This document shows positions 4,983-31,968 of a DNA stretch of 64,000 nucleotides, piece by piece. The stretch is from contig CANHGK010000003.1 of assembly GCA_947460235.1 (NCBI GenBank), positions 150,377 to 214,376 of the forward strand, written 5' to 3'. A program made the position numbers and the translations under genes. The notes under the pieces are model-generated. The model searched no databases, was not told where the DNA came from, and saw only the letters and a program-made list of their open reading frames with translations. This stretch comes from Paenibacillaceae bacterium. GTDB lineage: Bacteria > Bacillota > Bacilli > Paenibacillales > CANHGK01. Position 1 is the stretch's first letter. Each line of letters begins with the position of its first letter.

Positions 4983-5030
4983 TAGAACTTGATGAAACTC
5001 AATCGACTTGCATCCATCAAATAAACAAAT

Positions 5031-5077
5031 AAACCTCTGGCGAATTGGTATGAAACCGAATTCGTCAGAGGTTTTTG
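5031..5077. terminator. Bidirectional rho-independent terminator between convergent genes
   Basis: The stem AAACCTCTGGCGAATT / GAATTCGTCAGAGGTTT is flanked by T/A runs on both strands. Confidence 0.7.
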
Positions 5078-5082
5078 TATCA

Positions 5083-5646
5083 TTATTTACCTGTAATTTG
5101 CTTGAATAAAATAAATTGCCTTAACACATCCATTCCATCAGCAGGCATATACACAATTTCTGCACCATATCTTACACCGCGTTCAGAAATAATTTGGTTT
5201 AGTAAATATACTTTTGCAACAACCGGTGGGTCGAGCGTATGCAAAATCAAATGATAATACTCTTTTAATGCCAATGTTTTTTTGGGAGAATAAAATCCAA
5301 TCCCATTATGACTAACATCGACAACTTCAACTTGTTTCGTATCATAATCAAGCGACTTAAACATGTTATACATGAGCACGGCTTTCATATCGACAGGAAT
5401 CCGCGGAAACTTGCGACGATTATGCGAAAAATCTTTTAAATTTAATTTAACAAATAAATATAATTTACCGTTGTTTGCAGCGATGACTTTCCCTTTTAAT
5501 TCGGCATTTTGATAGTTAAAAATTGCCTGTTCTCCGATCGCAAAGCGTTCAGGACCTTGCATTCCAATGATCATTAATTCGCCTTCAAAGTAAATAAACG
5601 TACCTTCAACGATTTGATCTCTGCAAAAAATACGAATTTTTTCCAC
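5083..5646 (-). CDS. PilZ-domain protein (YcgR-like two-domain c-di-GMP receptor)
   Basis: The PilZ signature RRKFPR (RxxxR) is followed by DVSHNG (D/NxSxxG) about 30 residues later. The product is 187 aa. Confidence 0.75.
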   Translation of the reverse strand: MEKIRIFCRDQIVEGTFIYFEGELMIIGMQGPERFAIGEQAIFNYQNAELKGKVIAANNGKLYLFVKLNLKDFSHNRRKFPRIPVDMKAVLMYNMFKSLDYDTKQVEVVDVSHNGIGFYSPKKTLALKEYYHLILHTLDPPVVAKVYLLNQIISERGVRYGAEIVYMPADGMDVLRQFILFKQITGK

Positions 5647-5665
5647 GATGAAACCCCTCCATTCC

Positions 5666-6766
5666 CTACGACTCTATTTCTTCTATCGTTTCCGGTTCAG
5701 GCCAATGAATCCATTTTTTCCATATCCCTTGTTCGTACATTGCTTTCAAAAATAAAATAAGCACTGGTGTTGCTACCATCCCTGCGACACCGAAAATCGA
5801 AAATGAAATCATCAACGAAGCAAGCATCGTAAATGCTGAAACACCAAGCGACTCACCTGAAAGTTTTGGTTCAGCAATCTGTCTAAAGAGGACCACGACG
5901 CCATACAAAATGAGCAATCCAACTGCGAATGTCACATTCCCAGTCGCCCACGAATATAACATCCAAGGTATAAATAGTGTTGCAACGCCGATGAGTGGGA
6001 ACAAGTCCAAAATCGCACAAAACAATGCAAGCGATAATGCTTTATCTGATCCTAAGATCAATAATCCAACCAGTAAGATCGAAAAGGTGCAACTAACTAA
6101 AATCAGTTGTGCGCGAATGTATCTTCTCAGCCCAGACCATACGTGTTTATATAAAAATGATCCCGCATCTTTTAATCCTTGCGGCGCTTTATGATGAATC
6201 CATTTCGACCATTGATTGCGTTCTAAACTAAGAAAATATGCCAAAATCAATCCGATAATCGAATTAATCAGCAAAATCGGAACCTTTTTCACCGTCTGTA
6301 CCATCGATAAGAAAATCGTAGTTACCCAATTTGATATATTATTCAATAAACTCACAACATATCCCTGCAATTTTAACGTCCAGTCTGGACCAAAGGATGT
6401 CAATTGTTCTTGCAGATAAAAATTCATATCGCTGAACTTATCAATAAATTGATTTTCCATTGCCGGAAATTGTTCAATGATTTGCTGCGTCTGATTGACA
6501 ATTAAATAGGCAAAAAAACTAAACACACCAAGCATCAGTAATAACCAAACCCATACCGAAAGTAACGCGGCAAACCCTTTATGTAATCCACCTTTATGAA
6601 TTTGAAAAGCGAGCGGTTCAATGATCGCAAACCAAACAGCGGCAAAAAAAAGCGGTGCCGCAAGTTGATACATCCAACTTATCAACGTCAATAACGAAAT
6701 AATCGATACTGCCAACAACGCCAAATCTAATCCAGTTCTTGCATACTTTTTATAAAACGAAAACAC
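5666..6766 (-). CDS. AI-2E family (PerM/YtvI-like) integral membrane transporter
   Basis: The 366-aa polytopic membrane protein has the layout and conserved C-terminal half typical of AI-2E/YtvI sporulation membrane proteins. It lies 19 nt upstream of the PilZ gene. Confidence 0.7.
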   Translation of the reverse strand: MFSFYKKYARTGLDLALLAVSIISLLTLISWMYQLAAPLFFAAVWFAIIEPLAFQIHKGGLHKGFAALLSVWVWLLLMLGVFSFFAYLIVNQTQQIIEQFPAMENQFIDKFSDMNFYLQEQLTSFGPDWTLKLQGYVVSLLNNISNWVTTIFLSMVQTVKKVPILLINSIIGLILAYFLSLERNQWSKWIHHKAPQGLKDAGSFLYKHVWSGLRRYIRAQLILVSCTFSILLVGLLILGSDKALSLALFCAILDLFPLIGVATLFIPWMLYSWATGNVTFAVGLLILYGVVVLFRQIAEPKLSGESLGVSAFTMLASLMISFSIFGVAGMVATPVLILFLKAMYEQGIWKKWIHWPEPETIEEIES

Positions 6767-6789
6767 GTTTGACCTCCTCCGTCAATTCC

Positions 6790-8259
6790 TCACATCTTAT
6801 TTTTTGACATTCGGGTCACAATTTCCTTCGTTAATGGCAATACTTGTGATGAAAGATTTGGCGACAAATCTTCAATAACAACCGCAAAGGCATATTTAGG
6901 TGCATCCGCAGGCGTATAACCTATAAACCATTGGTGCTCTGTATTAGTATTTTGCGCTGTTCCCGTCTTTCCTGCAACCCCTAATACAGAATTATGCAAT
7001 ATTTTTCCCGTTCCACGTTCTACCGTGTTTCGAAGTGCCACTTTCAGAGCTGCATATTCCACTGGTAGTCCCACGCGAATACCGCTTAACCACTTCACTG
7101 GAAATTGCTTACGCACCATCCCTCGCGCATCTGTAATCGCAGTAACAACCCGCGGTGTTGCAACCTTACCTTCGTTCCAGATCGTGACCATCAAATTCGC
7201 AGCTTGTAATGGTGTCATCCTTACATTCCGCTGTCCAATCATTGACTGCGCTCGCTCATACATATCATCTGCACCAATTGCAAAATCCCCTGATTGCTCT
7301 CCCGACCATTGTCCTTCTGATCCAATACGTTGAAAAAGTCCTAAACGCCTTGCAATTGTTTTTAATTGAATCATCGAAACATCCTTAGCATTACCAGCAA
7401 ACCATGCGTTACATGACTGAACTAATGCTTCTAATCCATTCATTTGTCCATGTCCCGCCTCAGACCAACAGCGAACACCATTTATCCGATCACCATGACC
7501 AGTACATTTCACTTCCTGTTTCGGAATCCTGTCAACCTGTTGCGCCATGGCCAGCCAAGTCACGAGCTTAAAAATTGATCCTGGTGCTACCGCTTCAAGT
7601 GCGGTATTACGCCAAGATTGTGGACTAATACGCCATACTGGTCGACTCGCCATCACGATTACATCTGCTGTACGCATGTCCAAAATAACGACTGCGCCTT
7701 TTTTTACACGAAAATTATTAAGTATTTGTTCAATATCTTCTTGAATTGAACGATCAATTGTCGTCTGCACATGTAGTGGGTAGTATGGTGCACCTGCATT
7801 AATGTATGACGTCTCGCATGTGTTTCCCGTCGCATTCATCGTCCAACGAATTTTCGGCACGTATGCGAAGGGCGTACGAATATCACGATCCAACGACTTT
7901 TCGAGTCCAACTACACCACCAGCATCTTTCGTCGCAACACCAATTACCGGACGTGCAACAGTAATCGCTGTTTCCTTTACAACTCGATTTGTCCAACTTG
8001 GCATCGCGCATTGTGCCGGCAAAACTTCAAATACACGCGAAATATGATTCATTGCGTATCCATTTCGATCAAGAAATACTGGTCCATTTGTCGTTACATT
8101 GACTTCGTTCCATTGCTGTCGCTCGGCGAGTTCATTGAAGTTACCGCTGACCATAGACCACGGCTTCCAACCCGTAAGCATTAACAATGCCATCCAAACC
8201 GTTCCCCCAAACAGGCAAAACGACCATATCAACATTACAACTAACATCCGTCGTCGCAT
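6790..8259 (-). CDS. Class B penicillin-binding protein (transpeptidase), short form, possibly PbpI-like
   Basis: It has SxxK (SIFK), KTG (KTGTA) and an N-terminal membrane anchor. The ATG at 8259 (MRRRMLVV) has a GGGG RBS 8 nt upstream. In B. subtilis pbpI lies near yrrMNO. Confidence 0.75.
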   Translation of the reverse strand: MRRRMLVVMLIWSFCLFGGTVWMALLMLTGWKPWSMVSGNFNELAERQQWNEVNVTTNGPVFLDRNGYAMNHISRVFEVLPAQCAMPSWTNRVVKETAITVARPVIGVATKDAGGVVGLEKSLDRDIRTPFAYVPKIRWTMNATGNTCETSYINAGAPYYPLHVQTTIDRSIQEDIEQILNNFRVKKGAVVILDMRTADVIVMASRPVWRISPQSWRNTALEAVAPGSIFKLVTWLAMAQQVDRIPKQEVKCTGHGDRINGVRCWSEAGHGQMNGLEALVQSCNAWFAGNAKDVSMIQLKTIARRLGLFQRIGSEGQWSGEQSGDFAIGADDMYERAQSMIGQRNVRMTPLQAANLMVTIWNEGKVATPRVVTAITDARGMVRKQFPVKWLSGIRVGLPVEYAALKVALRNTVERGTGKILHNSVLGVAGKTGTAQNTNTEHQWFIGYTPADAPKYAFAVVIEDLSPNLSSQVLPLTKEIVTRMSKNKM

Positions 8260-8390
8260 GAATTCAGCCCCTACGCTTTTCACGTAGTTTCTCCATTTGT
8301 ACAACAAAAAAAACACCAGCACGCAACTTCCCCCCTATTATCAAATGCAGGAAGGAGTCATGTATGCGTAGCTAGCGTTTTTCAAAATAA

Positions 8391-9665
8391 TTATAGCGTT
8401 TTTAATACTTGTTTAATTTGACGGCGTACCAAATCGTATTCAGAAACTGGTTGGTCCACCTTAAACCAAACGGATTGCATCGGATGACGTGCTGCCGTTA
8501 ACTTCGTGCCTTCATCATCAAAAATTTCTTCCACAATCTGTCTGAATTTTACCCCAGTAGGTCCGAAAAATTCGATCATTTGACCTGGCTTGAAATGATT
8601 GCGTTGCTGGATATTAACCATGCCCCGCGCAACATCATAACGTTTAACGACACCACAGAAATCAAAAGGCGTTCGTTTATCTTCTGGTCCAAAAATATGA
8701 TCTTCCTCATCAGGCGCCTCAAAGAAGAACCCCGTGTTGAGCGGACGATTCGCTGCTTTTTCGATTTCAACGAGCCACTGTGAGTCAAATGTATATTCTG
8801 CTGGATTTTCAAAATAACGATCAACCGCCTGGCGATACGCATGAACGACGGTCGCAACATAGTGAATACTCCGCATACGACCTTCAATTTTCAAACTATC
8901 GATACCCGCTTCGATGATGTCAGGAATATGTTCAATCATGCACAAATCTTTTGAACTCATCATAAACGGCTCATCCTTGGTTGGCGTAATCGACTCTTCT
9001 TCAAGGAACAAGTCATATTGCCAGCGGCATGATTGGCAACATCCACCACGGTTCGAATCACGATCCGTAAAATGATTGGACAGCACACATCGACCCGAAT
9101 ATGACGAACACATTGCACCATGCACGAATTGCTCGATCTCGATATCCACCTGATCTTTAATTTTGCGGATTTCTTCAAATCCAACTTCACGCGCGAGCAC
9201 GACACGATGCACACCTTGTTCTTTCCAAAACTGAACACTGCGCCAATTCGTCGTCGATTGTTGCGTACTAAGATGTACTTCAAGCTCAGGGGCAACATGT
9301 TGACACGTTTCGATAATCGCCGGATCAGCAACGATAATACCAGTTACCCCAGCATCAGCAATAGAACGCAAATACGCAGCAATGCCGTCAATATCCTCGT
9401 TATGCGCATAAATATTTGTTGCAACGTAGACTTTCGCACCGCGTGCAGCCGCAAATTCAGAACCTTCACGCATTTCTTCAAATGAAAAATTATCCGCATT
9501 TGAACGAAGTCCATATGCCTGGCCACCAATATAGACCGCGTCCGCTCCGTAAGTAACCGCAAATTTTAATTTTTCCAGACTGCCCGCCGGCGCCAAAATT
9601 TCAGGTTTATCCCGCCGCACGTAGCGCTGTTTCGATGTCATTTTTTTCACCACTTCCTGATTCAT
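8391..9665 (-). CDS. yrrO: Peptidase U32 family protein, YrrO/TrhP-type (tRNA ho5U34 formation)
   Basis: It is a 424-aa U32 collagenase-family protein. Its ATG overlaps the upstream stop (TGATG). It is the third gene of the conserved yrrM-yrrN-yrrO arrangement. Confidence 0.8.
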   Translation of the reverse strand: MNQEVVKKMTSKQRYVRRDKPEILAPAGSLEKLKFAVTYGADAVYIGGQAYGLRSNADNFSFEEMREGSEFAAARGAKVYVATNIYAHNEDIDGIAAYLRSIADAGVTGIIVADPAIIETCQHVAPELEVHLSTQQSTTNWRSVQFWKEQGVHRVVLAREVGFEEIRKIKDQVDIEIEQFVHGAMCSSYSGRCVLSNHFTDRDSNRGGCCQSCRWQYDLFLEEESITPTKDEPFMMSSKDLCMIEHIPDIIEAGIDSLKIEGRMRSIHYVATVVHAYRQAVDRYFENPAEYTFDSQWLVEIEKAANRPLNTGFFFEAPDEEDHIFGPEDKRTPFDFCGVVKRYDVARGMVNIQQRNHFKPGQMIEFFGPTGVKFRQIVEEIFDDEGTKLTAARHPMQSVWFKVDQPVSEYDLVRRQIKQVLKTL

Positions 9666-12332: not shown

Positions 12333-12358
12333 GTTTTCGAGTGAAAGGGGGCATCCTT

Positions 12359-13264
12359 GTGGCCAAACGGCTAACTGCTTCAGAATATATGATCATGTTG
12401 TACACAATGTTTATGTTCGTACTTGTAGCGGGTGCATTTTTATATGGATTTAAGATGGGAACCGAAACGACAACTGCAAAATACTTGGAAAAATCGAAAG
12501 TTACCGAGAAGTTGGAGAATGATTTAATTTCATACGACCAAGACCATCTTATCACTTTATATTTTACGGTCTATACTCCATTTCGAACTGTACAAAAAGC
12601 TTGGTTTGATACATATCAAGGAATTTTACTTAAAACAAATACATTTGACGATATTAATAACATTTCCGACATTGCCAAATCGGCGAAAGAAAAATTATCC
12701 TTATTAAAGGTGCCTTCTTCTTCACCTCTTCTAGTCAGCGCACAACAAAATTACTTAAAAAGTTTAACGATATTCGAAAAAGTGTTTAAGGAATTCAAAC
12801 CAACAAAAGGCGAAAATAATGCAGATGTATTAAAAAAATTAGAATCATCCGCTTCCTTTGTTGTTGCAGCTAATTTCTCACTACAAGCGCAACAAGATTA
12901 TTTCGACGCTGTGATTAAATGGAATGAGAAGGTTTCCAACAAACCACTTAATGGCGTTAATGAAATCGACGGACCTAAGACAGGTATTGCGCTATGGAAT
13001 GTAATGAATTTGAATGTCAAAAATGCAGTGACTGCTCATTATTTACATCAAAATAAAGTCTTCTCAATTTATATGCCACAAGACTTGACAATTAACGTAG
13101 AATCATTACTTCAAGAACACCCTAAAACAAATATTATTCAAGATATTATGGACTCCTTAATCAAAACGAATGCTGTTCGCAATGGTGATTTCATTAAAGA
13201 TCGCACAATATATTATTCATCAGAAGTTTTGCCGCAAATTCCGTTTTTTAGCAAAATTCAATAA
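12359..13264 (+). CDS. Membrane-anchored hypothetical protein (about 301 aa)
   Basis: The GTG at 12359 lies 7 nt after AAAGGGGG. It has one N-terminal TM (MIMLYTMFMFVLVAGAFLYGF) and then a soluble Lys/Asn-rich domain. I recognise no family. It is followed by a strong terminator. Confidence 0.6.
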   Translation: MAKRLTASEYMIMLYTMFMFVLVAGAFLYGFKMGTETTTAKYLEKSKVTEKLENDLISYDQDHLITLYFTVYTPFRTVQKAWFDTYQGILLKTNTFDDINNISDIAKSAKEKLSLLKVPSSSPLLVSAQQNYLKSLTIFEKVFKEFKPTKGENNADVLKKLESSASFVVAANFSLQAQQDYFDAVIKWNEKVSNKPLNGVNEIDGPKTGIALWNVMNLNVKNAVTAHYLHQNKVFSIYMPQDLTINVESLLQEHPKTNIIQDIMDSLIKTNAVRNGDFIKDRTIYYSSEVLPQIPFFSKIQ

Positions 13265-16864: not shown

Positions 16865-16919
16865 AACAAGAAACCCCCTTTCGACTTGGAATTTCCAAAG
16901 TCAAAGGGGGTTTCTTGTT
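16865..16919. terminator. Bidirectional rho-independent terminator (long perfect hairpin)
   Basis: AACAAGAAACCCCCTTT ... AAAGGGGGTTTCTTGTT forms the stem, with an inner GACTTGGAA/TTCCAAAGTC stem. It overlaps the stop codon of the minus-strand gene. Confidence 0.85.
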
Positions 16920-17943
16920 ATGCTGCATAGGATTGTTCGGAATCTTCATCGTATGGTCGATTCATAATCCATGCGAGCGCAAACGAAATGATCAATACTA
17001 GTAACGTAATGCCAACAACCATTGCAACAAATACCGTTTGTAAATATTCCATATATTCTGCTTTGGAATATTCAATATTCGTATACCATTTCATCCCTTC
17101 AATTGGAAGCCGCATAACCATTTTTGAATCGTCTTCAAACACAATTTCAGAAGTGCCGGACGGCGCCGCATATTCTGATGCCGTAGCAATTTTTGTTAGA
17201 TCAGGTGAATAAATGATTTTATTTTGGTCATCCGTAATATACATTTTACTTTCTTTTCCGATTTTAACATTTTTCAAGGTATCTTGAATGATTTTAGAAT
17301 TCACTTCCACAACTACGGTCATGTCAGCGTCTGGATGTTGTACATCCTTAAGCACACGACCTAACGTCAATGTATAACCCGGAAAATCTTTTATACTATC
17401 AATCGATGGATCATTGAAAAACCCTTTTGCTAGCGTCGGAATCCATACGACTTTCCCATCCGCATCTGAGAAATCTTGCATCCCCTGCTTGTTTATCGCG
17501 GTCGAAATGTATGGCATCAATGGATTCGACATCAAATATTTGGTTAATTTCACCGCTTCTAACTGAAAATTATTTCTAGAATACAATCTGATCCCTACAA
17601 TATTAGGATCAAGATATTTCATCCCTGTTAATTGATCTCGGACATTTTTAACTTTAATTTTTTCGCTTATGCCATCCAATGTTCCTAATTGAATTTCGCT
17701 AATGTTCGCACGAAAACTTGCATCTAAAAACAATTGCTGCGTGACACCTTCGATTTTTGTTAATTGTTGTTTCACGGAATCATTTGCTTGAACTAAAATT
17801 TGTTTCGAGAAATCCATTACTTTCGAGCGAAGTGTATCATTCATAATCCCACGATAAAAAAATGCCATTCCCAGAACGACTAATTCAATCACTAATGCTA
17901 ATACGAAAAATGTTTTCAATCTTGCTTTGGTCAAATCGCTCAT
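16918..17943 (-). CDS. Cache-like extracytoplasmic sensor domain protein (TM-sensor-TM) lacking any output domain
   Basis: The topology is TM1 (FFVLALVIELVVLGMAFF), about 270 aa of periplasmic-type domain, then TM2 (VAMVVGITLLVLIISFALAWI). This matches the N-terminus of YesM-type kinases or MCPs. The protein ends 15 aa after TM2. The ATG at 17943 is downstream of the predicted -10. Confidence 0.55.
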   Translation of the reverse strand: MSDLTKARLKTFFVLALVIELVVLGMAFFYRGIMNDTLRSKVMDFSKQILVQANDSVKQQLTKIEGVTQQLFLDASFRANISEIQLGTLDGISEKIKVKNVRDQLTGMKYLDPNIVGIRLYSRNNFQLEAVKLTKYLMSNPLMPYISTAINKQGMQDFSDADGKVVWIPTLAKGFFNDPSIDSIKDFPGYTLTLGRVLKDVQHPDADMTVVVEVNSKIIQDTLKNVKIGKESKMYITDDQNKIIYSPDLTKIATASEYAAPSGTSEIVFEDDSKMVMRLPIEGMKWYTNIEYSKAEYMEYLQTVFVAMVVGITLLVLIISFALAWIMNRPYDEDSEQSYAA

Positions 17944-18032
17944 TATGAATTGAACTCCCATCGAGTTGATAAATCGTTTTAACAATATAACAGTATCATG
18001 ATTAATTCCATTTCACACTCGGGATTGCATTC

Positions 18033-23350: not shown

Positions 23351-24333
23351 TATGTAATCGTCTCTTCACGAACGGCTACATGTGGTAACTTTTGCAACAC
23401 CACATCTGCCAACGTCGCGATATACATCGGATCTGTATTTAATGAATCCGTTCGCTTCAGCAAAATTCCTTCTTCCGTTGCTACCGTTTGACATTCGATA
23501 TCAATATCATAAAGCACTTCCAAATGATCGCATACGAATCCAATCGGACAAATTAGTGCATATTTCACATGTTGTTCGCGTGCAATGGTGCGAAGCACAT
23601 CTTGAATATCCGGTCCTAACCAAGGCATGCCGTTTTGACCGGCGCTTTGCCAAGCAAACTGCCAATTCGTCACATTCGTTAATGCAGCGATACGCGTTGC
23701 CGTCTCATTCAATTGATCCGGATACGGATCTCCATTTTCCAGGATTTTTTCTGGAAGACTGTGCGCACTAAAAATAACGCGAATGTCGTCTTTATCAACG
23801 CCTTCTGCCTTAAATGCATCCAACTGTTTTTTGACGCGTTGTGCTAACGCGGTCAACAACCACGGGTGGACATGGTAACTTGTAATCCCAACAAGGAAAA
23901 TCCCATGTTTTTCAGCTTCTGCTTCAGCACGTTTGATATAAGTAGCAACACTATACGTCGAAAAATGTGGGGCAAGCACAATTGCAATGGCAGAATCAAA
24001 ACCGTCGGCAGCAATTTGTGATATCCCATCTTCAACAAATGGTGTCACATGCTTCAACCCTTGATAACATTTGAATTGTAAGCCAACGTCCAATTGATTC
24101 AAGTGCTCTTCCAATTTGATGACTTGATCATCCGTATTTTTACGAAGCGGGAACGTTCCACCAATGCGAGCGTATCGATCCGTTAAATCTTTTAATTGCT
24201 CCGCTGATGGCGGTCTGCCATGACGAATATGTGTATAATATGCTTCGATTTGATCCATATCTACTGGTGTTCCATAGGATAAAACAAGTACTGGGATGAC
24301 TCCATTTTTTGGTTGAACTAGTTGTGATGTCAT
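23350..24333 (-). CDS. hemH: Ferrochelatase (coproporphyrin ferrochelatase HemH/CpfC)
   Basis: It is a ferrochelatase-family protein of 327 aa. Its start overlaps the hemE stop (ATGA) and its stop overlaps the hemY start. Confidence 0.88.
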   Translation of the reverse strand: MTSQLVQPKNGVIPVLVLSYGTPVDMDQIEAYYTHIRHGRPPSAEQLKDLTDRYARIGGTFPLRKNTDDQVIKLEEHLNQLDVGLQFKCYQGLKHVTPFVEDGISQIAADGFDSAIAIVLAPHFSTYSVATYIKRAEAEAEKHGIFLVGITSYHVHPWLLTALAQRVKKQLDAFKAEGVDKDDIRVIFSAHSLPEKILENGDPYPDQLNETATRIAALTNVTNWQFAWQSAGQNGMPWLGPDIQDVLRTIAREQHVKYALICPIGFVCDHLEVLYDIDIECQTVATEEGILLKRTDSLNTDPMYIATLADVVLQKLPHVAVREETIT

Positions 24334-25427
24334 GTTCTCAATCCCTTCATCATTTCCATCGCGTTGCTGCGGGAGTATTGTTGTACAAACTGCGTCAATT
24401 CTTTCAACGTTTCCATCGGCGCTTCAGGAAAAAGACCATGTCCCAAATTGAAAATATAACCGGGTTGTTCTGTACCTGCTCGAATGATTTCTGCCGCCAT
24501 TTGTTCCAATTGATCTTTTGGTGCAAATAAGGCATATGGATCTAAATTGCCTTGAATTGCCCGATGCTTCACCCCTCCAGCCAATCGAGTTCGCGCTTGT
24601 GAAATGGGCGTTCTCCAATCAATCCCGATCACATCTGCCTGGACTTGATCTAGAGAACGAAGTAATTCCCCGCTGTTTATACCAGGAAAATAAATTAGCG
24701 GCGCTCGGGTGGCGCTCGGTTTCATTGCTTGTAAAGCTTGTAATTTACTGAAAATACGTTCAATCGTTGGTAAGACGTATTTTTCAAAATCAGGGACACT
24801 TAAAGCGCCTACCCAACTATCAAATACTTGCACCGCTTGTGCGCCAGCTCGAATTTGGGCGTCTAAATAGGAGACAACCATATCACCTAGTTTTTCCATA
24901 AGCAGCGCCCAAGTTGCCGGTTCACGGTACATCATTTGTTTCGTCTTGGCATACGTCCTCGATGGACGACCTTCCACCAAATAACTAGCAATTGTAAATG
25001 GTGCACCAGCAAATCCAATCAACGGTACGTTTAATTTTTTTCGCAACAGTTTAATTGTTTGTAAAATATGCGGTAACCCTTCTTCTGCAACAAGCGGACG
25101 AAGTGCCAGTACATCAGCATAAGAGCGGATCGGATTATCGATGACCGGTCCGATATTCGAAACAATATCAAATTGGATGCCCATCGGAGCAACCGGATTC
25201 ATAATATCAGAATATAAAATCGCTGCATCTACACCGAGTTTTTGTATTGGCATCATCGTAATTTCGGCAGCCAATTCCGGTTGACGGCAAATTTCTAGCA
25301 ATGAATATTTTTCTTTAATTTTTCTATAATCAGGATCGTACCTGCCAGCTTGTCTCATATACCAAACTGGTGTAGAAGCTGTCCGTTCACCTCGGCATGC
25401 CCGCAAGAAAATAGATGTATCTTCCAC
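24330..25427 (-). CDS. hemE: Uroporphyrinogen decarboxylase
   Basis: PVWYMRQAGRY is present near the N-terminus. The GTG at 25427 lies 7 nt after GAAGGAGG and aligns with the B. subtilis HemE start. The 25484 start in the ORF track is probably too long. Confidence 0.88.
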   Translation of the reverse strand: MEDTSIFLRACRGERTASTPVWYMRQAGRYDPDYRKIKEKYSLLEICRQPELAAEITMMPIQKLGVDAAILYSDIMNPVAPMGIQFDIVSNIGPVIDNPIRSYADVLALRPLVAEEGLPHILQTIKLLRKKLNVPLIGFAGAPFTIASYLVEGRPSRTYAKTKQMMYREPATWALLMEKLGDMVVSYLDAQIRAGAQAVQVFDSWVGALSVPDFEKYVLPTIERIFSKLQALQAMKPSATRAPLIYFPGINSGELLRSLDQVQADVIGIDWRTPISQARTRLAGGVKHRAIQGNLDPYALFAPKDQLEQMAAEIIRAGTEQPGYIFNLGHGLFPEAPMETLKELTQFVQQYSRSNAMEMMKGLRT

Positions 25428-25521
25428 AAAAATGCCTCCTTCGACATCAAAAAATCTTAATTCACTACTTAACATTATGGTCAATATTCTTAACTACTGC
25501 GAGTCAATGCAATGATTTTCT

Positions 25522-25549
25522 TTGAACATTTCGTGATGATTGTTATAAT
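25522..25549 (+). promoter_or_regulatory. Putative strong sigma-A promoter (extended -10)
   Basis: TTGAAC-N16-TATAAT is preceded by TGT (TGTTATAAT). It is divergent from hemE. Confidence 0.55.
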
Positions 25550-25576: not shown

Positions 25577-25858
25577 ATGGACAAAAAAAATCCCTATTCA
25601 CGGGCACGAACAGTCACCGGAAAAATCAATCGACAACCTGGCCATTACTTTGATATTCGTGATGAAGGCGACTCAAAAAACAATGATCGTGATCTCGTGG
25701 ATTGTCTAAAATGTAAATTTTTCTACGTAACATGGGAACCTGCATTTCCCCGTGGTTGCAAATTATTTCAGTTCAAAACCGCCAAATTGCCGAGTGATTT
25801 AGTGCTCGAATCAACCGGCCAATCTTGTCAGCAATTTCAACCCAAACAAAAAAGGTGA
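25577..25858 (+). CDS. Small Cys-rich protein (93 aa), probable zinc-binding, unknown function
   Basis: The ATG at 25577 lies 8 nt after GGAGG. The cysteine pattern is CLKC-x16-C-x26-C (DCLKCKFFYVTWEPAFPRGC...QSCQQF). It has its own promoter and terminator. Confidence 0.6.
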   Translation: MDKKNPYSRARTVTGKINRQPGHYFDIRDEGDSKNNDRDLVDCLKCKFFYVTWEPAFPRGCKLFQFKTAKLPSDLVLESTGQSCQQFQPKQKR

Positions 25859-25901
25859 TACCCGAATGGTTTAATGAAACCATCAGGAGATCACCTTTTT
25901 T
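25849..25901. terminator. Bidirectional terminator with nested hairpins
   Basis: The outer stem is AAAAAGGTGAT / ATCACCTTTTTT and the inner stem is ATGGTTT / AAACCAT. It lies between convergent genes. Confidence 0.85.
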
Positions 25902-25909
25902 GTACTCAT

Positions 25910-27946
25910 TTATTTAACCGTTGCATTCACTTGCGATTCAAACAATTTCACACGATCCGTAAAACCTTCGAAAATATTGTAAACAGGATTCACAATCAAT
26001 AAGGTTACCATTTTTCCGTTTTGAGCGGACATCGTATCGATCCAACCATTGGTGACATCTAATTTAATCATCGTTACAATATCATTTTTTCGAAGCGATG
26101 CATTGGATGCCTTAAAATCTTCTGCGGTCGCAAATTGTGGTATTTTCTTCGCCTCTTCTAATCCCAGGCGTAAATATGCATAATTTTTGGTGGTCGCATC
26201 CAAACATTGTTTCGCATTCGGATCATCCGGATGATACTTCAAAAACACATCGTTTACATGGCAATCCGTCGTGATGACCAACTCACCGGTTAGCGGTTGT
26301 ATTCCTTTAAATTCAGTCGTGACCAACATTTCTTTTTCGTCTTCGGTCATCGGTGCAACTGTACTCATACCAAGCGTAAATGTACTCGAACTACTTCCAA
26401 ACGGAAAATGAAAAATAGAGGATGATTGATCTTCCAATGTTCTAGATACACGAAGCATGTTTGTATCGGTCAAAACAATATCTCCAATCAAGCCTTTCTT
26501 CAATTCAAACAACGGTACCGCTCCCGGTTGTAGCTTTCCATTCAATTGATTTTCCAAGCTTGTTGAGACATTTAATGTCATCACTTGCTGTTCTGTACGG
26601 AGCAACAACTGATCTGCTGTTACATATCGTGCACCTTGAATAGAGGCTTGATCTGAATGATACAAGATGACCGGAGCAGGTGTGATAGGATTATTTGCAT
26701 TTGCAATGCTCGTTCCAACGATCGTGTCGTTAATTGCATTTGAGAATGCACTCTTCGAAACAATCGCGATTTGATTCGAGGAACCATTTCCAATTGAATA
26801 ATTGATGTTTCGATTCAAATAACGCTTTTCTTCCATTACTGCAAGCAAATCACGATTGACGAAAAGATCCTCTGGGTGCTGATCGATCCACGATGACACT
26901 GCCAATAAATCTTTTGAAGCGGATATACTGTTATTAAAAAATGTAAATGCTATTTTTTGCGTGTTATCTTGTACTGGTGTTTTGCATCTCGATCCGCTAA
27001 GTCCTGAAAATGGTAAGAGCAATTTGAAGAAACATTTGCGTTCCGAATTTAATCCCGTAAGCTCAATGGACGAACCGTTTATTTGGATGCGGTTAGACAA
27101 TGCCGTCCAATTATAAATTCCATTCAAAATTGCCGATGTTTGATTCTCTACTTCAATGGATGCTTGTGTTGCATACCCTGTCGACTTGCGTTCGATAATC
27201 GAGATTTCACTCGGTATCGTGTCTGTTATTGATGAATACCAAAAGGTCACAAGTAAATCAGGTAATAAATAATGATTTGCTACCGCACCACCAGTAATCT
27301 TAGAAACTTCACTTGGCTGTCCCCATTTTTGAATAATTGATTGTTTTGATGTGTATGGCGCAATCCCTCTGAATAATTCACCACTAACATTCGCATTCGA
27401 CGGGATGATCAATTGTCCCGGATGTCTATTTTTAAATTCTTTTAATGTACTGACTGATTGCCCTAACGTACGCGGGACATATTGTACGTTTGTATCATAA
27501 TCAATCACCGATTCATTCAACCACTCTGCTTGGTTTACATGATCGATTGGTGGGCGCCAACCGTTCGACATTGCGTTCACTACCATTTTCCCATACTGTG
27601 TACGCGGAATCGGGATGATACGTAGTGCTCGATATTTTTTCACATTCGAATATTGCCTATCGCTCAGCGTTACTCCGTTTTTGGAATCCATATGCATTAA
27701 GCCTGAGCGGAAAGGTATTTTCGTCTCATTCCAACCGATCACTTGGAATGAAAGTTCATCTAATCCCTTACACAAATAATTAACGTTGCTGATCCCATTT
27801 TTTTGATTCAGTAACGCAGCCATACTTTTAGCGCTCTCACATAGGTTTTTAACCAGAGGTTTATTTTTAGCCGTTGCTGCAAAAGACACGTCAAACGCGA
27901 TCAAAAACAACGTTAAACTTGCGATCAATACGATGATCTTTTTCAA
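25910..27946 (-). CDS. Secreted 678-aa protein of unknown function
   Basis: The TTG start lies 7 nt after AGGAGGA, which sits inside the last codons of the upstream MFS gene. The Sec signal peptide is MKKIIVLIASLTLFLIAFDVSFA|A. There are six Cys in three closely spaced pairs. I recognise no domain. Confidence 0.7.
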   Translation of the reverse strand: MKKIIVLIASLTLFLIAFDVSFAATAKNKPLVKNLCESAKSMAALLNQKNGISNVNYLCKGLDELSFQVIGWNETKIPFRSGLMHMDSKNGVTLSDRQYSNVKKYRALRIIPIPRTQYGKMVVNAMSNGWRPPIDHVNQAEWLNESVIDYDTNVQYVPRTLGQSVSTLKEFKNRHPGQLIIPSNANVSGELFRGIAPYTSKQSIIQKWGQPSEVSKITGGAVANHYLLPDLLVTFWYSSITDTIPSEISIIERKSTGYATQASIEVENQTSAILNGIYNWTALSNRIQINGSSIELTGLNSERKCFFKLLLPFSGLSGSRCKTPVQDNTQKIAFTFFNNSISASKDLLAVSSWIDQHPEDLFVNRDLLAVMEEKRYLNRNINYSIGNGSSNQIAIVSKSAFSNAINDTIVGTSIANANNPITPAPVILYHSDQASIQGARYVTADQLLLRTEQQVMTLNVSTSLENQLNGKLQPGAVPLFELKKGLIGDIVLTDTNMLRVSRTLEDQSSSIFHFPFGSSSSTFTLGMSTVAPMTEDEKEMLVTTEFKGIQPLTGELVITTDCHVNDVFLKYHPDDPNAKQCLDATTKNYAYLRLGLEEAKKIPQFATAEDFKASNASLRKNDIVTMIKLDVTNGWIDTMSAQNGKMVTLLIVNPVYNIFEGFTDRVKLFESQVNATVK

Positions 27947-27950
27947 TGGA

Positions 27951-29141
27951 TTATCCTCCTAGCACGTCAACCTTAAATGTTTTTTTACGTCTAACCAATA
28001 TTCCAATCGTAAAGACGATTATCGCCATTGCTGCCCCGCCAAACATCATTCGTACATTCAGTGAAACACCTACCCATGCAAGAAACTGAAACACAGCGAG
28101 TCCACTAAGCATAAACACATTTTCCATCATATTCTGAATTGCTACCGTCCGTCCGACACCGATATGCTTCTTTCCTTCAGACTGAAGTAATGTATTCATA
28201 GGAACAACGAACAAACCTCCAAGTAAACCAATCATAAATAACACGCCAACAACTGGTATCGTTCCGTTCACCCAAGGTGAAAGCATAATCAATAGTGCGC
28301 TTATATATGCGAACGGTATGGCCTTCTCAACATTTCCAATTTTGATGATGACCGGGGCCAACATTGCTCCTCCAATGACACCAACCGCAGATGCTGCAAG
28401 TAATGTTGCCTGTCCCGCTTTATCCGTAATCCCAAGCACAACCGGTAACCAGGTTAGATACGCGATACGCATGAGTGTTGCACTCATCCAAAATGATGAA
28501 TTCCCAAGTAACGCGAACCGCGTGAGCGGATTCGAAAACAAAGTCTTTATATCCGCAAAAAAATTCGAAATACCAATTGCATATGTAATTGTTTTCTTTC
28601 CTTCAATTTTTGGAAGTCCAAAACTAAACAACAATGACAAGATTAATACCATCGCTGTTCCAAATAGGCCCCATGTGGAAGAATGATCTGCTAGTATCCC
28701 GCCTGTGATACTTCCGACCATAATCGCCAAAATACTTAAACCTTCCAAGATTCCGTTACCGCGTAACAACGTTTGACCATCTTGGATCAAATCATTTAGC
28801 ATTCCGTATTTTGCTGGTGAATAAACGACCGCACCTGCACCGAATATCGCATAACATAGTGGAACCGGAATACCGCTAAACAGTAACAACACCCCAGCCA
28901 TTTTAAGAAGTACACCGAGTTGAATGATTCGCTTGCGACTCGAACGATCCGATAATGTTCCAACTACCGGTGCAAGTAAAATATACGCTGCCAAAAATGC
29001 AGTTTGCACACCGGACATATACTGATCCGGTTCAAGTACCCCGCGTTCACCGGCTAGCCCGACGAGTGCGAAAAACACTGCATTATCAGCAAACGCATTA
29101 AACCATTGCGCAAATACCAAAAACCAATAAGATCGATTCAT
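27951..29141 (-). CDS. MFS transporter of the LplT (lysophospholipid transporter)-like family
   Basis: Shared landmarks with E. coli LplT, recalled from memory: FADNA near TM1, VYSPAKYG, LTRFALLGNSSFW, LPVVLGITD, FVVPMNTLLQSEGKK and VAIQNMMEN. The ATG at 29141 (MNRSYWFLV) fits the family N-terminus better than the 29186 start. Confidence 0.75.
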   Translation of the reverse strand: MNRSYWFLVFAQWFNAFADNAVFFALVGLAGERGVLEPDQYMSGVQTAFLAAYILLAPVVGTLSDRSSRKRIIQLGVLLKMAGVLLLFSGIPVPLCYAIFGAGAVVYSPAKYGMLNDLIQDGQTLLRGNGILEGLSILAIMVGSITGGILADHSSTWGLFGTAMVLILSLLFSFGLPKIEGKKTITYAIGISNFFADIKTLFSNPLTRFALLGNSSFWMSATLMRIAYLTWLPVVLGITDKAGQATLLAASAVGVIGGAMLAPVIIKIGNVEKAIPFAYISALLIMLSPWVNGTIPVVGVLFMIGLLGGLFVVPMNTLLQSEGKKHIGVGRTVAIQNMMENVFMLSGLAVFQFLAWVGVSLNVRMMFGGAAMAIIVFTIGILVRRKKTFKVDVLGG

Positions 29142-29157
29142 AAACGTTTCCTGCCCC

Positions 29158-29952
29158 TTATCCGCGTTCCATAAACAAACGTCCATCTATGCAATCCAAC
29201 CAGATTCGTTGCGTTTGGATTGATTCTAGCCAATCGTAGCGTTCTGTACCGATAATTACCGGACCCGGATAATCTCCTATCCAGGAAGCTAATCGTTCCA
29301 GTGCATCTATCGTTAATACACGCTCTGGTTCCATCAGCATAAAAAATGTGTCTCGCGACATGTCTGTTCTCGTCGCATCAACTTCCGCCCAACCAAGTAA
29401 ACGCGATAAACCTGTCCGACCGCGATCTTCTGCGCCAAGCAGTTCCATCCACTGTGCAGTTAACTCCTCGTCAACTCCGGTAAACGAGAGCAAGGCGCGC
29501 AGTCTTTTTTCCGTATCCCATCCGTTTCGTTCAATCAAAAGCGCCTCCAACTCTGCAACGCGAAGTTGGTCGGAATCGTGCATGACAAGTTTGGAAACCA
29601 ATTGTTCATATTCTTTGATCGCTTCACCAATATCTGGTTCGATCGCCCATATTGCTTCCATTACCGTTTCTGAAGAATCCGGCGAAACATTGTTAACGAT
29701 TAACTTTTCACCGACTCCGCGATTCCCAAGTTCACGCGTCATCTTCCAACACGCCTCTGGCGCTTCAAAAATAAATCCACCAACTGGCCAATCAACCGTA
29801 CCTTTATTAAGCGTTTGAATACCTAATAACACACCTACCCAATATCTTCTCCAGCGTCGCGAAAAATTTCGAAGAACATAAACATTCCCCGGTTTAAACC
29901 AAAAATCAAATGTTCCCGATTTTTCATCAACAGACACATTTCGCAGGCGCAT
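29158..29952 (-). CDS. Degenerate single ABC-F-like nucleotide-binding-domain homologue (predicted pseudo-ATPase)
   Basis: The product is collinear with ABC-F NBD1, but Walker A is replaced by NFSRRWRRY, the signature LSGGE by LGAED, Walker B LLLDEP by FMLMEP and H-loop SHDR by GTER. The ABC-F-type helical insert EYEQL...NGWDTEKR is retained. The RBS is GAGGTGA. Confidence 0.6.
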   Translation of the reverse strand: MRLRNVSVDEKSGTFDFWFKPGNVYVLRNFSRRWRRYWVGVLLGIQTLNKGTVDWPVGGFIFEAPEACWKMTRELGNRGVGEKLIVNNVSPDSSETVMEAIWAIEPDIGEAIKEYEQLVSKLVMHDSDQLRVAELEALLIERNGWDTEKRLRALLSFTGVDEELTAQWMELLGAEDRGRTGLSRLLGWAEVDATRTDMSRDTFFMLMEPERVLTIDALERLASWIGDYPGPVIIGTERYDWLESIQTQRIWLDCIDGRLFMERG

Positions 29953-29964
29953 AACTTCACCTCA

Positions 29965-30468
29965 TTATTGGTTACGTTCTACTATTCTCGCTTCCAACGT
30001 CTTGAGCAAATCCGTACATGCTTGCTCAACCAATTGAAAAACATATTCAAATCGACCATCATAATATGGATCTGGTACATTCGCATCCGGTTGTTTCAAC
30101 TTAGCCTTCGTCGACCACTCTAACAACCGATTCACCGTCGATTGATAATTGCCTTTGGCAAACCCTTTAACATTCGTAACATTGCTATCATCCATACAAA
30201 TGATATATTCAAATTCGTCAAAATCAGATGCTTTCACTTGTCTTGCGAACATTCCAGCGCTAGAAACGCCATGACTTTGCAATACTTCCTGTGTCCCGCG
30301 ATGCGGACGATGTCCGACATGCCAGTCACCGGTTCCCGCAGAATCAATCCTAAATTTATCTTGTATTCCTTTTTTCTCGACCAAATGACGAAACACCGCT
30401 TCTGCCATCGGCGATCGGCAAATATTACCCAGACATACGAATAATACGCCTGTTTTTTGTGAGTTCAT
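29965..30468 (-). CDS. Low-molecular-weight protein tyrosine phosphatase
   Basis: The P-loop is VCLGNICRSPMAE (CX5R-S), and the catalytic Asp lies in the VPDPYY motif. The product is 167 aa. GGAGG lies 7 nt upstream. Confidence 0.88.
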   Translation of the reverse strand: MNSQKTGVLFVCLGNICRSPMAEAVFRHLVEKKGIQDKFRIDSAGTGDWHVGHRPHRGTQEVLQSHGVSSAGMFARQVKASDFDEFEYIICMDDSNVTNVKGFAKGNYQSTVNRLLEWSTKAKLKQPDANVPDPYYDGRFEYVFQLVEQACTDLLKTLEARIVERNQ

Positions 30469-30499
30469 GATACGGCCTCCTTACCTCAATCACTTTGCT

Positions 30500-30508
30500 A
30501 TTATAGCA
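30500..30508 (-). promoter_or_regulatory. Putative extended -10 promoter element of the phosphatase operon
   Basis: The minus strand reads TGCTATAAT about 30 nt upstream of the start codon. There is no convincing -35 at 16-18 nt. Confidence 0.35.
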
Positions 30509-30583
30509 CAGGCCCTGTCCAAAAATGACCGTTTAAAAAACAAAAGGACGTTGTGCGTAAACACAAAATCCATCAATATCAAC

Positions 30584-31783
30584 TTATAAATTCGATTGTT
30601 GATATAACCACACGAACGCATGAAACCGATCAACAACCCCTAATTTATTCAAAATATTTGTCACGTGATGCTTCACGGTATGTTCACTAATACCCAATTC
30701 CGTTGAAATGTCCTTGTTCGATTTCCCGCAGATGATGTGCATGAGTACTTCTTTTTCGCGTTTCGACAATTGCACTAACGAGTGAATTACTGATTCGAGA
30801 TTTTTACCGACAAAAGAAACTTGAGGGATTACGTCTTTGTTCACCATGTCGATTTTTTCTTCGTTCGCCCAAATTTCATCATTCAAATATTTACTCAGAT
30901 TCCATGAATATGAGAAATTCAAAAATTGTTCACTCCATTTTTCAAGCGGCCCAAACCAACTGATCAAGTTTGCTTGCCAATCGCTTTTTGTCATCCGATT
31001 TTTCATATTCTGCAAATGATCAAACCAAATCTGAATCGCGGATAACAGTTGTCCTTCTTGTTGATACATTCGTTCAGGCGTTCCATTCATTGATCGCAAA
31101 TGAATCACATGTTGCACGTGCGATTTTTGCATACACCAATTGTACCAATACTGATAGGACTCAACGATCGAATAAACGCTCCCGGGCAAATAAATTTGAC
31201 GTATTTCTGATGGCAAATGTTTAAATAACAAAGAAAGTAGCATGGGAAAAATCGTGTTTTCACGCCAATTCGATTGAATTAAAAATGCATGTAAAAAGAA
31301 TAAACGATTTGTCAGATGACGTTTTGATTCCTCACTCATTGAACGAAAGGAATCATTTATAAAGCCGGTGATTTGAAAAACCATTTGTTCCTTAGAACTT
31401 TCTAAATTCGCGTGACGTTGGCTGTAAAATGTATTTAATAATTTCGTGAATTGCTGTATTTCAATGAGGATATCCTGTTCCTTCTCGATGGGATCAGCAC
31501 TCAACGGTCCAGCAATGAGGAATGTTAGTCGGTTGTTCATTGGGATTGGTTCGACCATCCATGACGTGCGATTCGTAGGTTCAAAAATAAAACTGGCTTT
31601 GTGCTTTAAAGCCTGTTTCATAATCCCTTCCCAATTTCGATCGTCAGTTTGCGATGGTAAGCGATCGTTCTCAATTAATAAGCCGCCATCATCACTTACC
31701 CATCGCAGTTGTAATCCCCATTTTGATGCAACCGCATTTAAAACCCCACGCCATTCAATGACATTTAACCCCATGTTGATCAT
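30584..31783 (-). CDS. LuxR/GerE-family transcriptional regulator with an unrecognised 330-aa N-terminal region
   Basis: The C-terminal HTH is LSKREKEVLMHIICGKSNKDISTELGISEHTVKHHVTNILNKLGV. There is no receiver domain or autoinducer-binding signature that I can see. An alternative start at 31774 has a better RBS (AAGGA, 8 nt). Confidence 0.75.
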   Translation of the reverse strand: MINMGLNVIEWRGVLNAVASKWGLQLRWVSDDGGLLIENDRLPSQTDDRNWEGIMKQALKHKASFIFEPTNRTSWMVEPIPMNNRLTFLIAGPLSADPIEKEQDILIEIQQFTKLLNTFYSQRHANLESSKEQMVFQITGFINDSFRSMSEESKRHLTNRLFFLHAFLIQSNWRENTIFPMLLSLLFKHLPSEIRQIYLPGSVYSIVESYQYWYNWCMQKSHVQHVIHLRSMNGTPERMYQQEGQLLSAIQIWFDHLQNMKNRMTKSDWQANLISWFGPLEKWSEQFLNFSYSWNLSKYLNDEIWANEEKIDMVNKDVIPQVSFVGKNLESVIHSLVQLSKREKEVLMHIICGKSNKDISTELGISEHTVKHHVTNILNKLGVVDRFHAFVWLYQQSNL

Positions 31784-31802
31784 CCTTGTCTGTACGGGTC
31801 TT

Positions 31803-31840
31803 GTATATTAATTATACTTTTGTATAGATATTGTATATAC
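31803..31840. promoter_or_regulatory. GTATA repeat cluster (possible operator) overlapping a TATAAT box upstream of the LuxR-type gene
   Basis: The cluster comprises GTATAttaatTATAC (inverted repeat, 31803-31817), GTATA (31822-31826) and the palindrome GTATATAC (31833-31840). TATAAT on the minus strand lies at 31811-31816. Confidence 0.35.
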
Positions 31841-31928: not shown

Positions 31929-31968
31929 TAAAAAAACAGCTTTTTTCATACGAAAAAAGCTGTTTTTC
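31929..31968 (-). terminator. Rho-independent terminator after ricA
   Basis: AAAAAACAGCTTTTTT-cata-CGAAAAAAGCTGTTTTT lies immediately after the ricA stop. Confidence 0.85.

Follow-up and report, generated by a model that had tools for sequence, protein, structure and literature searches.

We analyzed a block of five genes located between ricA and hemE in a 64-kb stretch of contig CANHGK010000003.1 from a Paenibacillaceae bacterium (the whole stretch of 64,000 nucleotides (nt) is referred to as the window). The locus is metagenome-assembled and is also present in ENA (ERZ28612991, scaffold MEHR18-2_SAMN08331102), in Logan (SRR6787519) and at NCBI. According to the listing of open reading frames (ORFs), all five genes lie on the minus strand and together span positions 25910–31783. 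In the direction of transcription, they code for a regulator with a GerE/LuxR-family helix-turn-helix (HTH) domain, a low-molecular-weight protein tyrosine phosphatase (PTP), a 264-residue protein resembling a nucleotide-binding domain (NBD) of ABC-F ATPases, a major facilitator superfamily (MFS) transporter of the LplT family and a secreted 678-residue protein. The coordinates are collected in Table 1; a preliminary description of this DNA had placed the five gene models, the promoter and the terminator at the same positions.

Table 1. Features of the five-gene block and neighborhoods of the closest homologues of its MFS transporter
Locus	Feature	Coordinates	Strand	Remarks
Window	GerE/LuxR-family HTH regulator	30584–31774	-	396 aa from ATG 31774; longest ORF from 31783
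Window	PTP, YfkJ-type	29965–30468	-	167 aa; Pfam LMWPc, PDB 4etm match
Window	Dead derivative of ABC-F NBD1 + Arm	29158–29952	-	264 aa; NCBIfam, HMMER, alignment, AlphaFold2, Foldseek
Window	LplT-family MFS	27951–29141	-	396 aa; longer ORF extends to 29186; MFS_1, NF008397
Window	Secreted 678-aa orphan	25910–27946	-	TTG start; Sec signal peptide
Window	Extended -10 TGcTATAAT, promoter of the four-gene operon	30500–30508	-	Read directly; poor -35
Window	Bidirectional intrinsic terminator	25846–25903		27-nt arms, 85% complementarity, U-tract
Window	Weak hairpin and U-tract 3' of the regulator stop	30535–30571	-	10-bp interrupted stem, then UUUUGUUUUUU
L089	LplT homologue, 43% identity	1–2014 (pair)		Directly downstream of Aas (acyltransferase + AMP-binding)
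L088	LplT homologue, 43% identity	2181–5485 (pair)		Directly downstream of Aas
L006 (Brevibacillus)	LplT homologue	4842–8191 (pair)		Directly downstream of Aas
L004 (P. xanthanilyticus)	LplT homologue	4433–9051		Overlapped by APH-family kinase gene
L005 (Cohnella)	LplT homologue			No obvious partner
L007	LplT homologue			No obvious partner
L090	LplT homologue			No obvious partner

Codon-usage scoring gave in-frame values of 0.18–0.30 for all five genes, which is within or near the range of the 39 other genes of the window (mean 0.29, standard deviation 0.05), and strongly negative values for their five off-frames. Positive in-frame and negative off-frame scores together indicate that the block genes are truly coding and native in composition. 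The GC content of the block is unremarkable for a genome of ~40% GC, with the regulator and 678-residue protein genes slightly lower in both coding score and GC. For the regulator gene, the ribosome-binding site (RBS) AAGGA suits the second ATG (31774) and not the start at 31783.

The four genes downstream of the regulator are packed closely enough to be probably co-transcribed. Read directly, the spacer between the PTP stop and the start of the 264-residue protein gene is 12 nt long (RBS GAGGTGA), and that between the stop of the latter and the MFS ATG is 16 nt long (weak RBS AGGAA). The MFS stop is separated by 4 nt from the TTG start of the 678-residue protein gene, for which AGGAGGA is located within the final MFS codons, 7 nt 5' of TTG. 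These distances, as well as the position of AGGAGGA, agree with those given in the preliminary description. The latter regarded the four genes as a translationally coupled unit. This holds for the junction between the MFS and 678-residue protein genes; the other two junctions do not represent strict coupling, since each has its own RBS in a short spacer. The extended -10 element upstream of the PTP gene was missed by a two-hexamer promoter scan because its -35 element is weak. No convincing internal terminator was found when the block was scanned, and the operon is closed by a strong bidirectional one (-30.1 kcal/mol, z = -6.2; equal folding in 0 of 200 shuffles) that also serves a small convergent gene. 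For the terminator of ricA (31932–31967), the corresponding values are -20.7 kcal/mol and z = -6.4. The weak hairpin between the regulator and the PTP gene may be a leaky terminator that parts the regulator from the operon; the folding z-score of the 81-nt segment holding it is not significant.

The MFS protein matches MFS_1 (PF07690, 5.6e-23) over residues 23–358 and, along its full length, the NCBIfam LplT model NF008397 (287.5 bits, E = 1.8e-85), falling 9.5 bits short of the equivalog cutoff (297 bits). Its closest homologues (35–43% identity) come from Paenibacillus, Cohnella and Brevibacillus and bear the PGAP name LplT; one enterobacterial LplT is 36% identical. The signature blocks are kept, and D19 of the FADN motif is invariant in nine aligned sequences, including Enterobacter LplT. 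This residue is the equivalent of the essential D30 in enterobacterial LplT, where the D30N substitution abolishes transport (PMC11416262). As far as can be judged from sequence, the protein is an LplT-family lysophospholipid flippase, in line with the LplT-like MFS of the preliminary description, and it would be expected to transport lysophospholipids.

We compared the gene context of this transporter with the LplT–Aas system of E. coli and K. pneumoniae and with the neighborhoods of the seven closest LplT homologues (Table 1). In Brevibacillus and two uncultured relatives, an Aas-type acyltransferase/acyl-ACP synthetase is encoded directly upstream, with the acyltransferase and AMP-binding regions preceding or overlapping the MFS gene. 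The homologue of P. xanthanilyticus is preceded by a PspA-DUF350-DUF4178-DUF4247 membrane-stress cluster, a different envelope-stress context. In contrast, the block shares with the LplT–Aas system the transporter with its LplT score, essential Asp and signature blocks, but has a PTP and a dead ABC-F-like NBD upstream and a secreted orphan coupled downstream. Aas was found neither beside the MFS gene nor anywhere in the 64-kb window, and the same is true of APH and of an intact ABC-F in the window. Moreover, the host is of Gram-positive type, having no outer membrane. Conversely, genes for a PTP, an NBD-like protein or a large secreted protein are missing beside the LplT homologue in all seven neighborhoods.

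The 264-residue protein gave weak matches to ABC-F models of NCBIfam (best 2.5e-5) and to Uup and YheS in a sequence search against PDB, while a word-indexed homology search returned only the query itself. An exhaustive HMMER search of 1.84 billion representative proteins, in which the 264- and 678-residue proteins were concatenated as a single query, detected one true relative (P0007, 44% identity) and two frameshifted but genuine ABC-F fragments with library-wide E-values of 5e-4 and 9e-4. P0007 is encoded on an 840-bp contig (L003) of the same metagenome and is full-length (260 residues) when read from an upstream ATG. None of the catalytic motifs is left in the 264-residue protein. Walker A reads R-x-F-x-x-RWRR (RNFSRRWRR) instead of GANGAGKST, the Gln of the Q-loop is missing, the Asp of Walker B is gone (FMLMEP for LLLDEP), and so is the His of the H-loop (GTER for SHDR). 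According to the alignment, P0007 shows identical motif losses and a common insertion of ~24 residues after the first β-strands. The region best conserved with ABC-F proteins is the Arm/helical region (E114, E116, L118, D128, R131, E134–E136, E141, G144, E148). It is also the most confident part (pLDDT 88–96) of the AlphaFold2 model built from a four-sequence alignment (pLDDT 78.7, pTM 0.78 overall). The top Foldseek matches of this model in PDB are MtbEttA (3.1e-10), EttA, ABCF1, PoxtA, YbiT and YheS, with transporter NBDs ranking below the ABC-F factors; the alignment included the ABC-F fragments, which may bias the model towards that fold.

ABCF proteins have the architecture ABC1(+Arm)-Linker-ABC2 (PMC6723617). 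The 264-residue protein resembles EttA, YbiT, YheS, Uup and ARE-ABCFs in the NBD1 fold with an Arm/helical insertion and in the weak but library-wide significant sequence similarity. It differs from them in being a single-domain protein without the linker/PtIM and NBD2 and in having its catalytic motifs replaced. ATPase activity is excluded by the loss of these motifs, and the single NBD places the protein outside the ABCF architecture. The sequence and the model together identify it as a stand-alone pseudo-ATPase derived from ABC-F NBD1 and Arm, in line with the earlier description of a dead ABC-F-like NBD. The additional suggestion that it is an NBD-like cytoplasmic partner of the MFS transporter is unsupported, since in fold and sequence it is closest to the ABC-F translation factors, whose binding partners are ribosomes rather than permeases. 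It likewise fails as an NBD subunit of an ABC transporter, because no ABC permease was found in the block and the required motifs are lost too. Comparison with P0007 gave dN of 0.53 with dS saturated. Divergence at the three codon positions is 0.47/0.32/0.62, and different codons are used at 60 of 113 identical residues. This pattern is that of a two-member family under purifying selection, so that by its substitutions the protein is a maintained one and not a relic.

The 678-residue protein begins with a canonical Sec signal peptide ending in VSFA|A, and its export may be predicted from this feature. Hydropathy and motif checks revealed no further transmembrane segment, lipobox or LPXTG. The six Cys residues group into three local pairs (36/59, 305/321, 562/581), which would suit an extracellular protein, and the in-frame coding score of the gene is 0.20. 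No match was obtained in Pfam, NCBIfam, PADLOC, PHROGs or PDB sequences, nor did three separate segments of the protein match anything in Pfam at E ≤ 10. Homologues are absent from both large protein sets searched (5.8e9 proteins by the word-indexed search, which returned only the query, and 1.84e9 by exhaustive HMMER), so that the preliminary label of a secreted orphan is appropriate. The motifs GxSxG, GDS, HExxH and LPxTG are all missing from the sequence. AlphaFold2 run without an alignment produced an unusable model (pLDDT 31). Neither this protein nor the 264-residue one has a paralogue in the window. One candidate relative was considered in L088, where a membrane-anchored protein of 618 residues with two CxxCH haem-binding motifs is encoded directly upstream of aas-lplT (243–2099). 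It has weak cytochrome c and RoxA-like matches and was rejected as a relative of the 678-residue protein (E = 1.8), being di-haem cytochrome c-like. Over 14 kb, the window differs from the ENA assembly at three positions only (25961, 26011 and 26046). All three lie in a stretch of 86 nt near the 3' terminus of the 678-residue protein gene, and two alter the protein (D634G, L646M). This clustering points to microdiversity among strains or to a recombination tract centered on this gene.

The PTP matches Pfam LMWPc (PF01451) with 1.1e-45; among PDB entries, B. subtilis YfkJ (4etm) ranks first (3.5e-48, motifs aligned). The CX5R(S) P-loop (CLGNICRS) and the DPYY acid loop (VPDPYY) are both intact, and the catalytic motifs are identical to those of YfkJ. 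The original assignment as a low-molecular-weight PTP is thereby refined to the YfkJ type, the protein being an orthologue of YfkJ. An association of YfkJ with resistance to ethanol stress is reported (PMC4304235). The operon partners are different. In B. subtilis, the gene order is yfkH-yfkI-yfkJ, and this order is absent from the block.

The regulator has a C-terminal HTH at approximately residues 335–393 (Pfam GerE, 1.4e-18), to which its PDB matches are confined. The N-terminal ~330 residues have no Pfam match at E ≤ 10, and a metagenome scan provided only HTH-level matches and no N-terminal relative. The protein was initially called a LuxR solo. It does resemble LuxR solos in the C-terminal GerE/LuxR HTH and in having no cognate synthase nearby, and the N-terminal region matches no family, as had been noted. 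However, the autoinducer-binding domain PF03472 was not found in Pfam and NCBIfam searches, and ‘LuxR solo’ is therefore a misnomer.

To place the block in its chromosomal setting, MiaB and RicA were used as queries against one genome per GTDB species (r232 representatives). RicA gave no match, and the best matches of MiaB were to Marinicrinis and Paenibacillus (70–72% identity). The source genome is absent from the representatives searched, and the organism may belong to an undescribed family-level lineage near Paenibacillaceae. In such a deep and essentially unsampled lineage, a higher number of orphan genes is to be expected. Orphan or divergent genes are indeed not limited to the block. 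Elsewhere in the window, a 307-residue ORF (12341–13264, plus strand) has no Pfam match and a 355-residue ORF (16918–17985, minus strand) matches dCache only weakly, which fits a deep lineage.

All block proteins were also compared by tblastn with 80 related miaB-ricA loci. The order M19-korAB-miaB-ricA is conserved across these loci, yet downstream of ricA none of them contains a homologue of the regulator, the 264-residue protein, the MFS transporter, the 678-residue protein or hemE. The preliminary description held that B. subtilis-like synteny, interrupted by the block, resumes with hemE. This is not the case. None of the 80 related genomes has hemE/H/Y within 10 kb downstream of miaB, and hemEHY is never adjacent to the ricA site. 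In B. subtilis, hemEHY and ymcA lie hundreds of genes apart. The site itself is hypervariable: clustering assigned the first position after ricA to 29 families in 75 loci, and in Paenibacillaceae this position varies almost genome by genome. Bacillaceae, Brevibacillus and Thermoactinomyces retain a conserved three-gene run after ricA, presumably CotE, MutS and MutL, judging by protein sizes and the B. subtilis gene order. On these comparisons, the Paenibacillaceae have a hot spot of rearrangement just 3' of ricA. Searches of the block revealed no tRNA, integrase, transposase or significant flanking repeats and no RNA family or riboswitch (Rfam); apart from generic ones, phage and defence families (PADLOC, PHROGs) were likewise missing.

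The one block protein with counterparts at this site is the PTP. Four related members of the genus Paenibacillus (Paenibacillus sp. V4I3, Paenibacillus sp. yr247, P. marchantiophytorum and P. oryzisoli) encode a homologue of it (48–49% identity) 0.9 kb 3' of ricA. In L015 (12051–13318; also in L018, L019 and L054), an intact PhnC-type solo ABC ATPase of 262 residues overlaps the start of the YfkJ-like PTP gene. No permease is encoded near this NBD–PTP pair. The arrangement is similar to that of the block in that a PTP at the same site is tightly coupled to an NBD-fold protein of ~262 residues. It differs in that the NBD is catalytically intact and precedes the PTP, and in that neither an MFS transporter nor a secreted orphan is encoded next. 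Descent of the 264-residue protein from the PTP-linked PhnC-type NBD was considered and rejected (E = 0.82).

Three further observations concern the surroundings of the block. The small convergent gene (25577–25858, plus strand) codes for a Cys-containing protein of 93 residues with no family in Pfam, NCBIfam or PHROGs. It has a promoter at 25522–25549 with a near-consensus extended -10 (TTGAAC-16-TGtTATAAT) and an RBS GGAGG, and it diverges from hemE. For hemE itself (24330–25484), the longest ORF begins at TTG 25484, while the GTG start at 25427 is backed by N-terminal alignment logic and the RBS GAAGGAGG. Finally, a contig (DASQNU010000114.1, L035) labeled as a ‘Candidatus Bathyarchaeia archaeon’ metagenome-assembled genome carries a Firmicute-type miaB-ricA pair, whose products are 69% and 39% identical to their counterparts in the window, and is probably a mis-binned bacterial contig.

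Considering all these features, we find it reasonably probable that the block represents a lineage-specific operon that co-expresses four products, with a LuxR-family regulator alongside, rather than a new system. The block would then fill a repeatedly rearranged locus 3' of ricA in a deep-branching uncultured bacterium related to Paenibacillaceae. The GerE/LuxR-family regulator with its orphan N-terminal domain would form its own transcription unit, and the σA-type extended -10 promoter would drive the four-gene operon up to the strong terminator. The LplT-family transporter is predicted to flip lysophospholipids from the outer to the inner leaflet. Since Aas, the companion of its closest homologues, is absent here, re-acylation would be performed by an unlinked acyltransferase. 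The 264-residue protein would be a non-catalytic descendant of the first NBD and Arm of an ABC-F protein, retained by purifying selection; the PTP, a housekeeping or stress phosphatase; and the 678-residue protein, a fast-evolving exported protein. Taken this way, the four genes are presumably just co-expressed, plausibly for envelope or stress maintenance, and their products are not parts of one machine. The preliminary description was correct in that the combination matches no characterized system. The stronger notion of a ‘module’ gained no support, as the genes were not found together elsewhere: the 678-residue protein has no homologue, the 264-residue one has a single homologue on a short contig, and none of the seven LplT neighborhoods contains the set. 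With two components orphan and no neighborhood conserved, a ‘new system’ is unsupported.

Some of the observations nevertheless weigh against this interpretation. The very tight packing, including the true coupling of the MFS and 678-residue protein genes, shows selection for co-expression and fits a functional link. The lack of co-occurrence is itself weak evidence, because the lineage is almost unsampled. The 264-residue protein gene occupies the exact slot that aas takes upstream of lplT in L006, L088 and L089, and LplT requires a cytoplasmic partner bound via its central loop (PMC11416262). In addition, the related ORF in L003 is tightly flanked. An upstream stop overlaps its ATG, and 4 nt after its own stop a new ATG begins an ORF (MRYRFK) with a basic, MFS-like N-terminus as in LplT homologues. 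From this sequence arrangement, a conserved pair of the 264-residue protein and MFS genes is conceivable. Together with the purifying selection on the 264-residue protein family, these points favor an integrated envelope module for lipid salvage or sensing. In such a module, lysolipids made or presented by the 678-residue protein would be flipped by LplT. The dead NBD would stand in for Aas as cytoplasmic partner or scaffold of the transporter, and the PTP and LuxR-family protein would have regulatory roles. The aas-slot position and the need of LplT for a partner keep the idea alive, although neither constitutes a test of it, and the same applies to the flanking genes in L003. We consider the module unlikely. 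A second instance of the gene set was not found among the loci searched, and LplT homologues elsewhere do without such partners. The fold of the 264-residue protein is nearer to NBD1 of the ribosome-binding ABC-F proteins than to acyltransferases or the NBDs of transporters, and it offers no acyltransferase chemistry. The 678-residue protein carries no lipase, esterase or lipid-binding signature among those sought (no GxSxG, GDS) and has no usable model. A more specific version, in which a Gram-positive LplT has the dead ABC-F NBD as its dedicated cytoplasmic partner, replacing Aas at the central loop and acting together with the coupled secreted orphan, appears improbable.

Alternatively, the ricA–hemE interval could have received the block recently, as a genomic island or mobile cargo. 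Its absence downstream of ricA in 80 related genomes, the orphan character of three of its genes, and the slightly lower coding score and GC of the regulator and 678-residue protein genes are all compatible with acquisition. However, no integrase, transposase, tRNA, flanking direct repeat, phage or defence match accompanies the block, and its GC and codon usage are within the host range. Furthermore, the ricA–hemE junction is itself unique to the lineage, implying a rearrangement point and not a clean insertion, and partial ancestry is suggested by the PTP that some Paenibacillus species have at this site. An island is therefore a poor candidate. We give marginally less credence still to the possibility that the 264-residue protein is a ribosome-associated pseudo-ABC-F that tunes translation by binding ribosomes or an ABC-F partner, its place in the operon being incidental or serving local translation of membrane and secreted products. 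The residues best kept with ABC-F proteins lie in the Arm/helical region, every top structural match is an ABC-F factor, and the EttA Arm contacts the L1 stalk (PMC6723617). Yet the protein is devoid of the PtIM/linker and NBD2, which place ABC-F proteins in the E site, the fold prediction may be biased by ABC-F fragments in the alignment, and no contextual or experimental link to translation genes exists. Least credible of all is that the ORFs for the 264- and/or 678-residue proteins are non-functional, either decaying remnants or over-called. This explanation appeals to the missing homologues and disordered single-sequence model of the 678-residue protein and to the vanished catalytic motifs of the 264-residue one, but has to contend with long intact ORFs in a 40% GC genome with positive in-frame and negative off-frame scores, a canonical RBS and signal peptide of the 678-residue protein gene, substitution and codon-position patterns of a maintained protein in the 264-residue family, and the fact that folding without an alignment leads one to expect a low pLDDT whatever the protein.

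Under the preferred reading of a lineage-specific operon, what is new here is an LplT operon that lacks Aas and a dead half of an ABC-F protein that stands alone. With P0007, the latter makes up a two-member family of catalytically dead, single-domain NBD1 proteins of ABC-F descent, and no other part of the block is as curious. The survey of LplT neighborhoods has a further implication: LplT, also in canonical Aas–LplT pairs, exists in Firmicutes, whereas a recent paper states that the system is known only from Gram-negative bacteria. Should the NBD prove to be a partner of LplT, the block would represent a new system for lysophospholipid handling or sensing, with a translation-factor domain co-opted as a pseudoenzyme scaffold. 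If all four genes cooperate, a bacterium that has no outer membrane would be handling lysophospholipids in a new way, and this would be the first case of an ABC-F translation-factor domain reused as a non-catalytic partner of a membrane transporter. The block also illustrates how a deep, unsampled lineage yields ‘orphan operons’ at a recombination-prone site.

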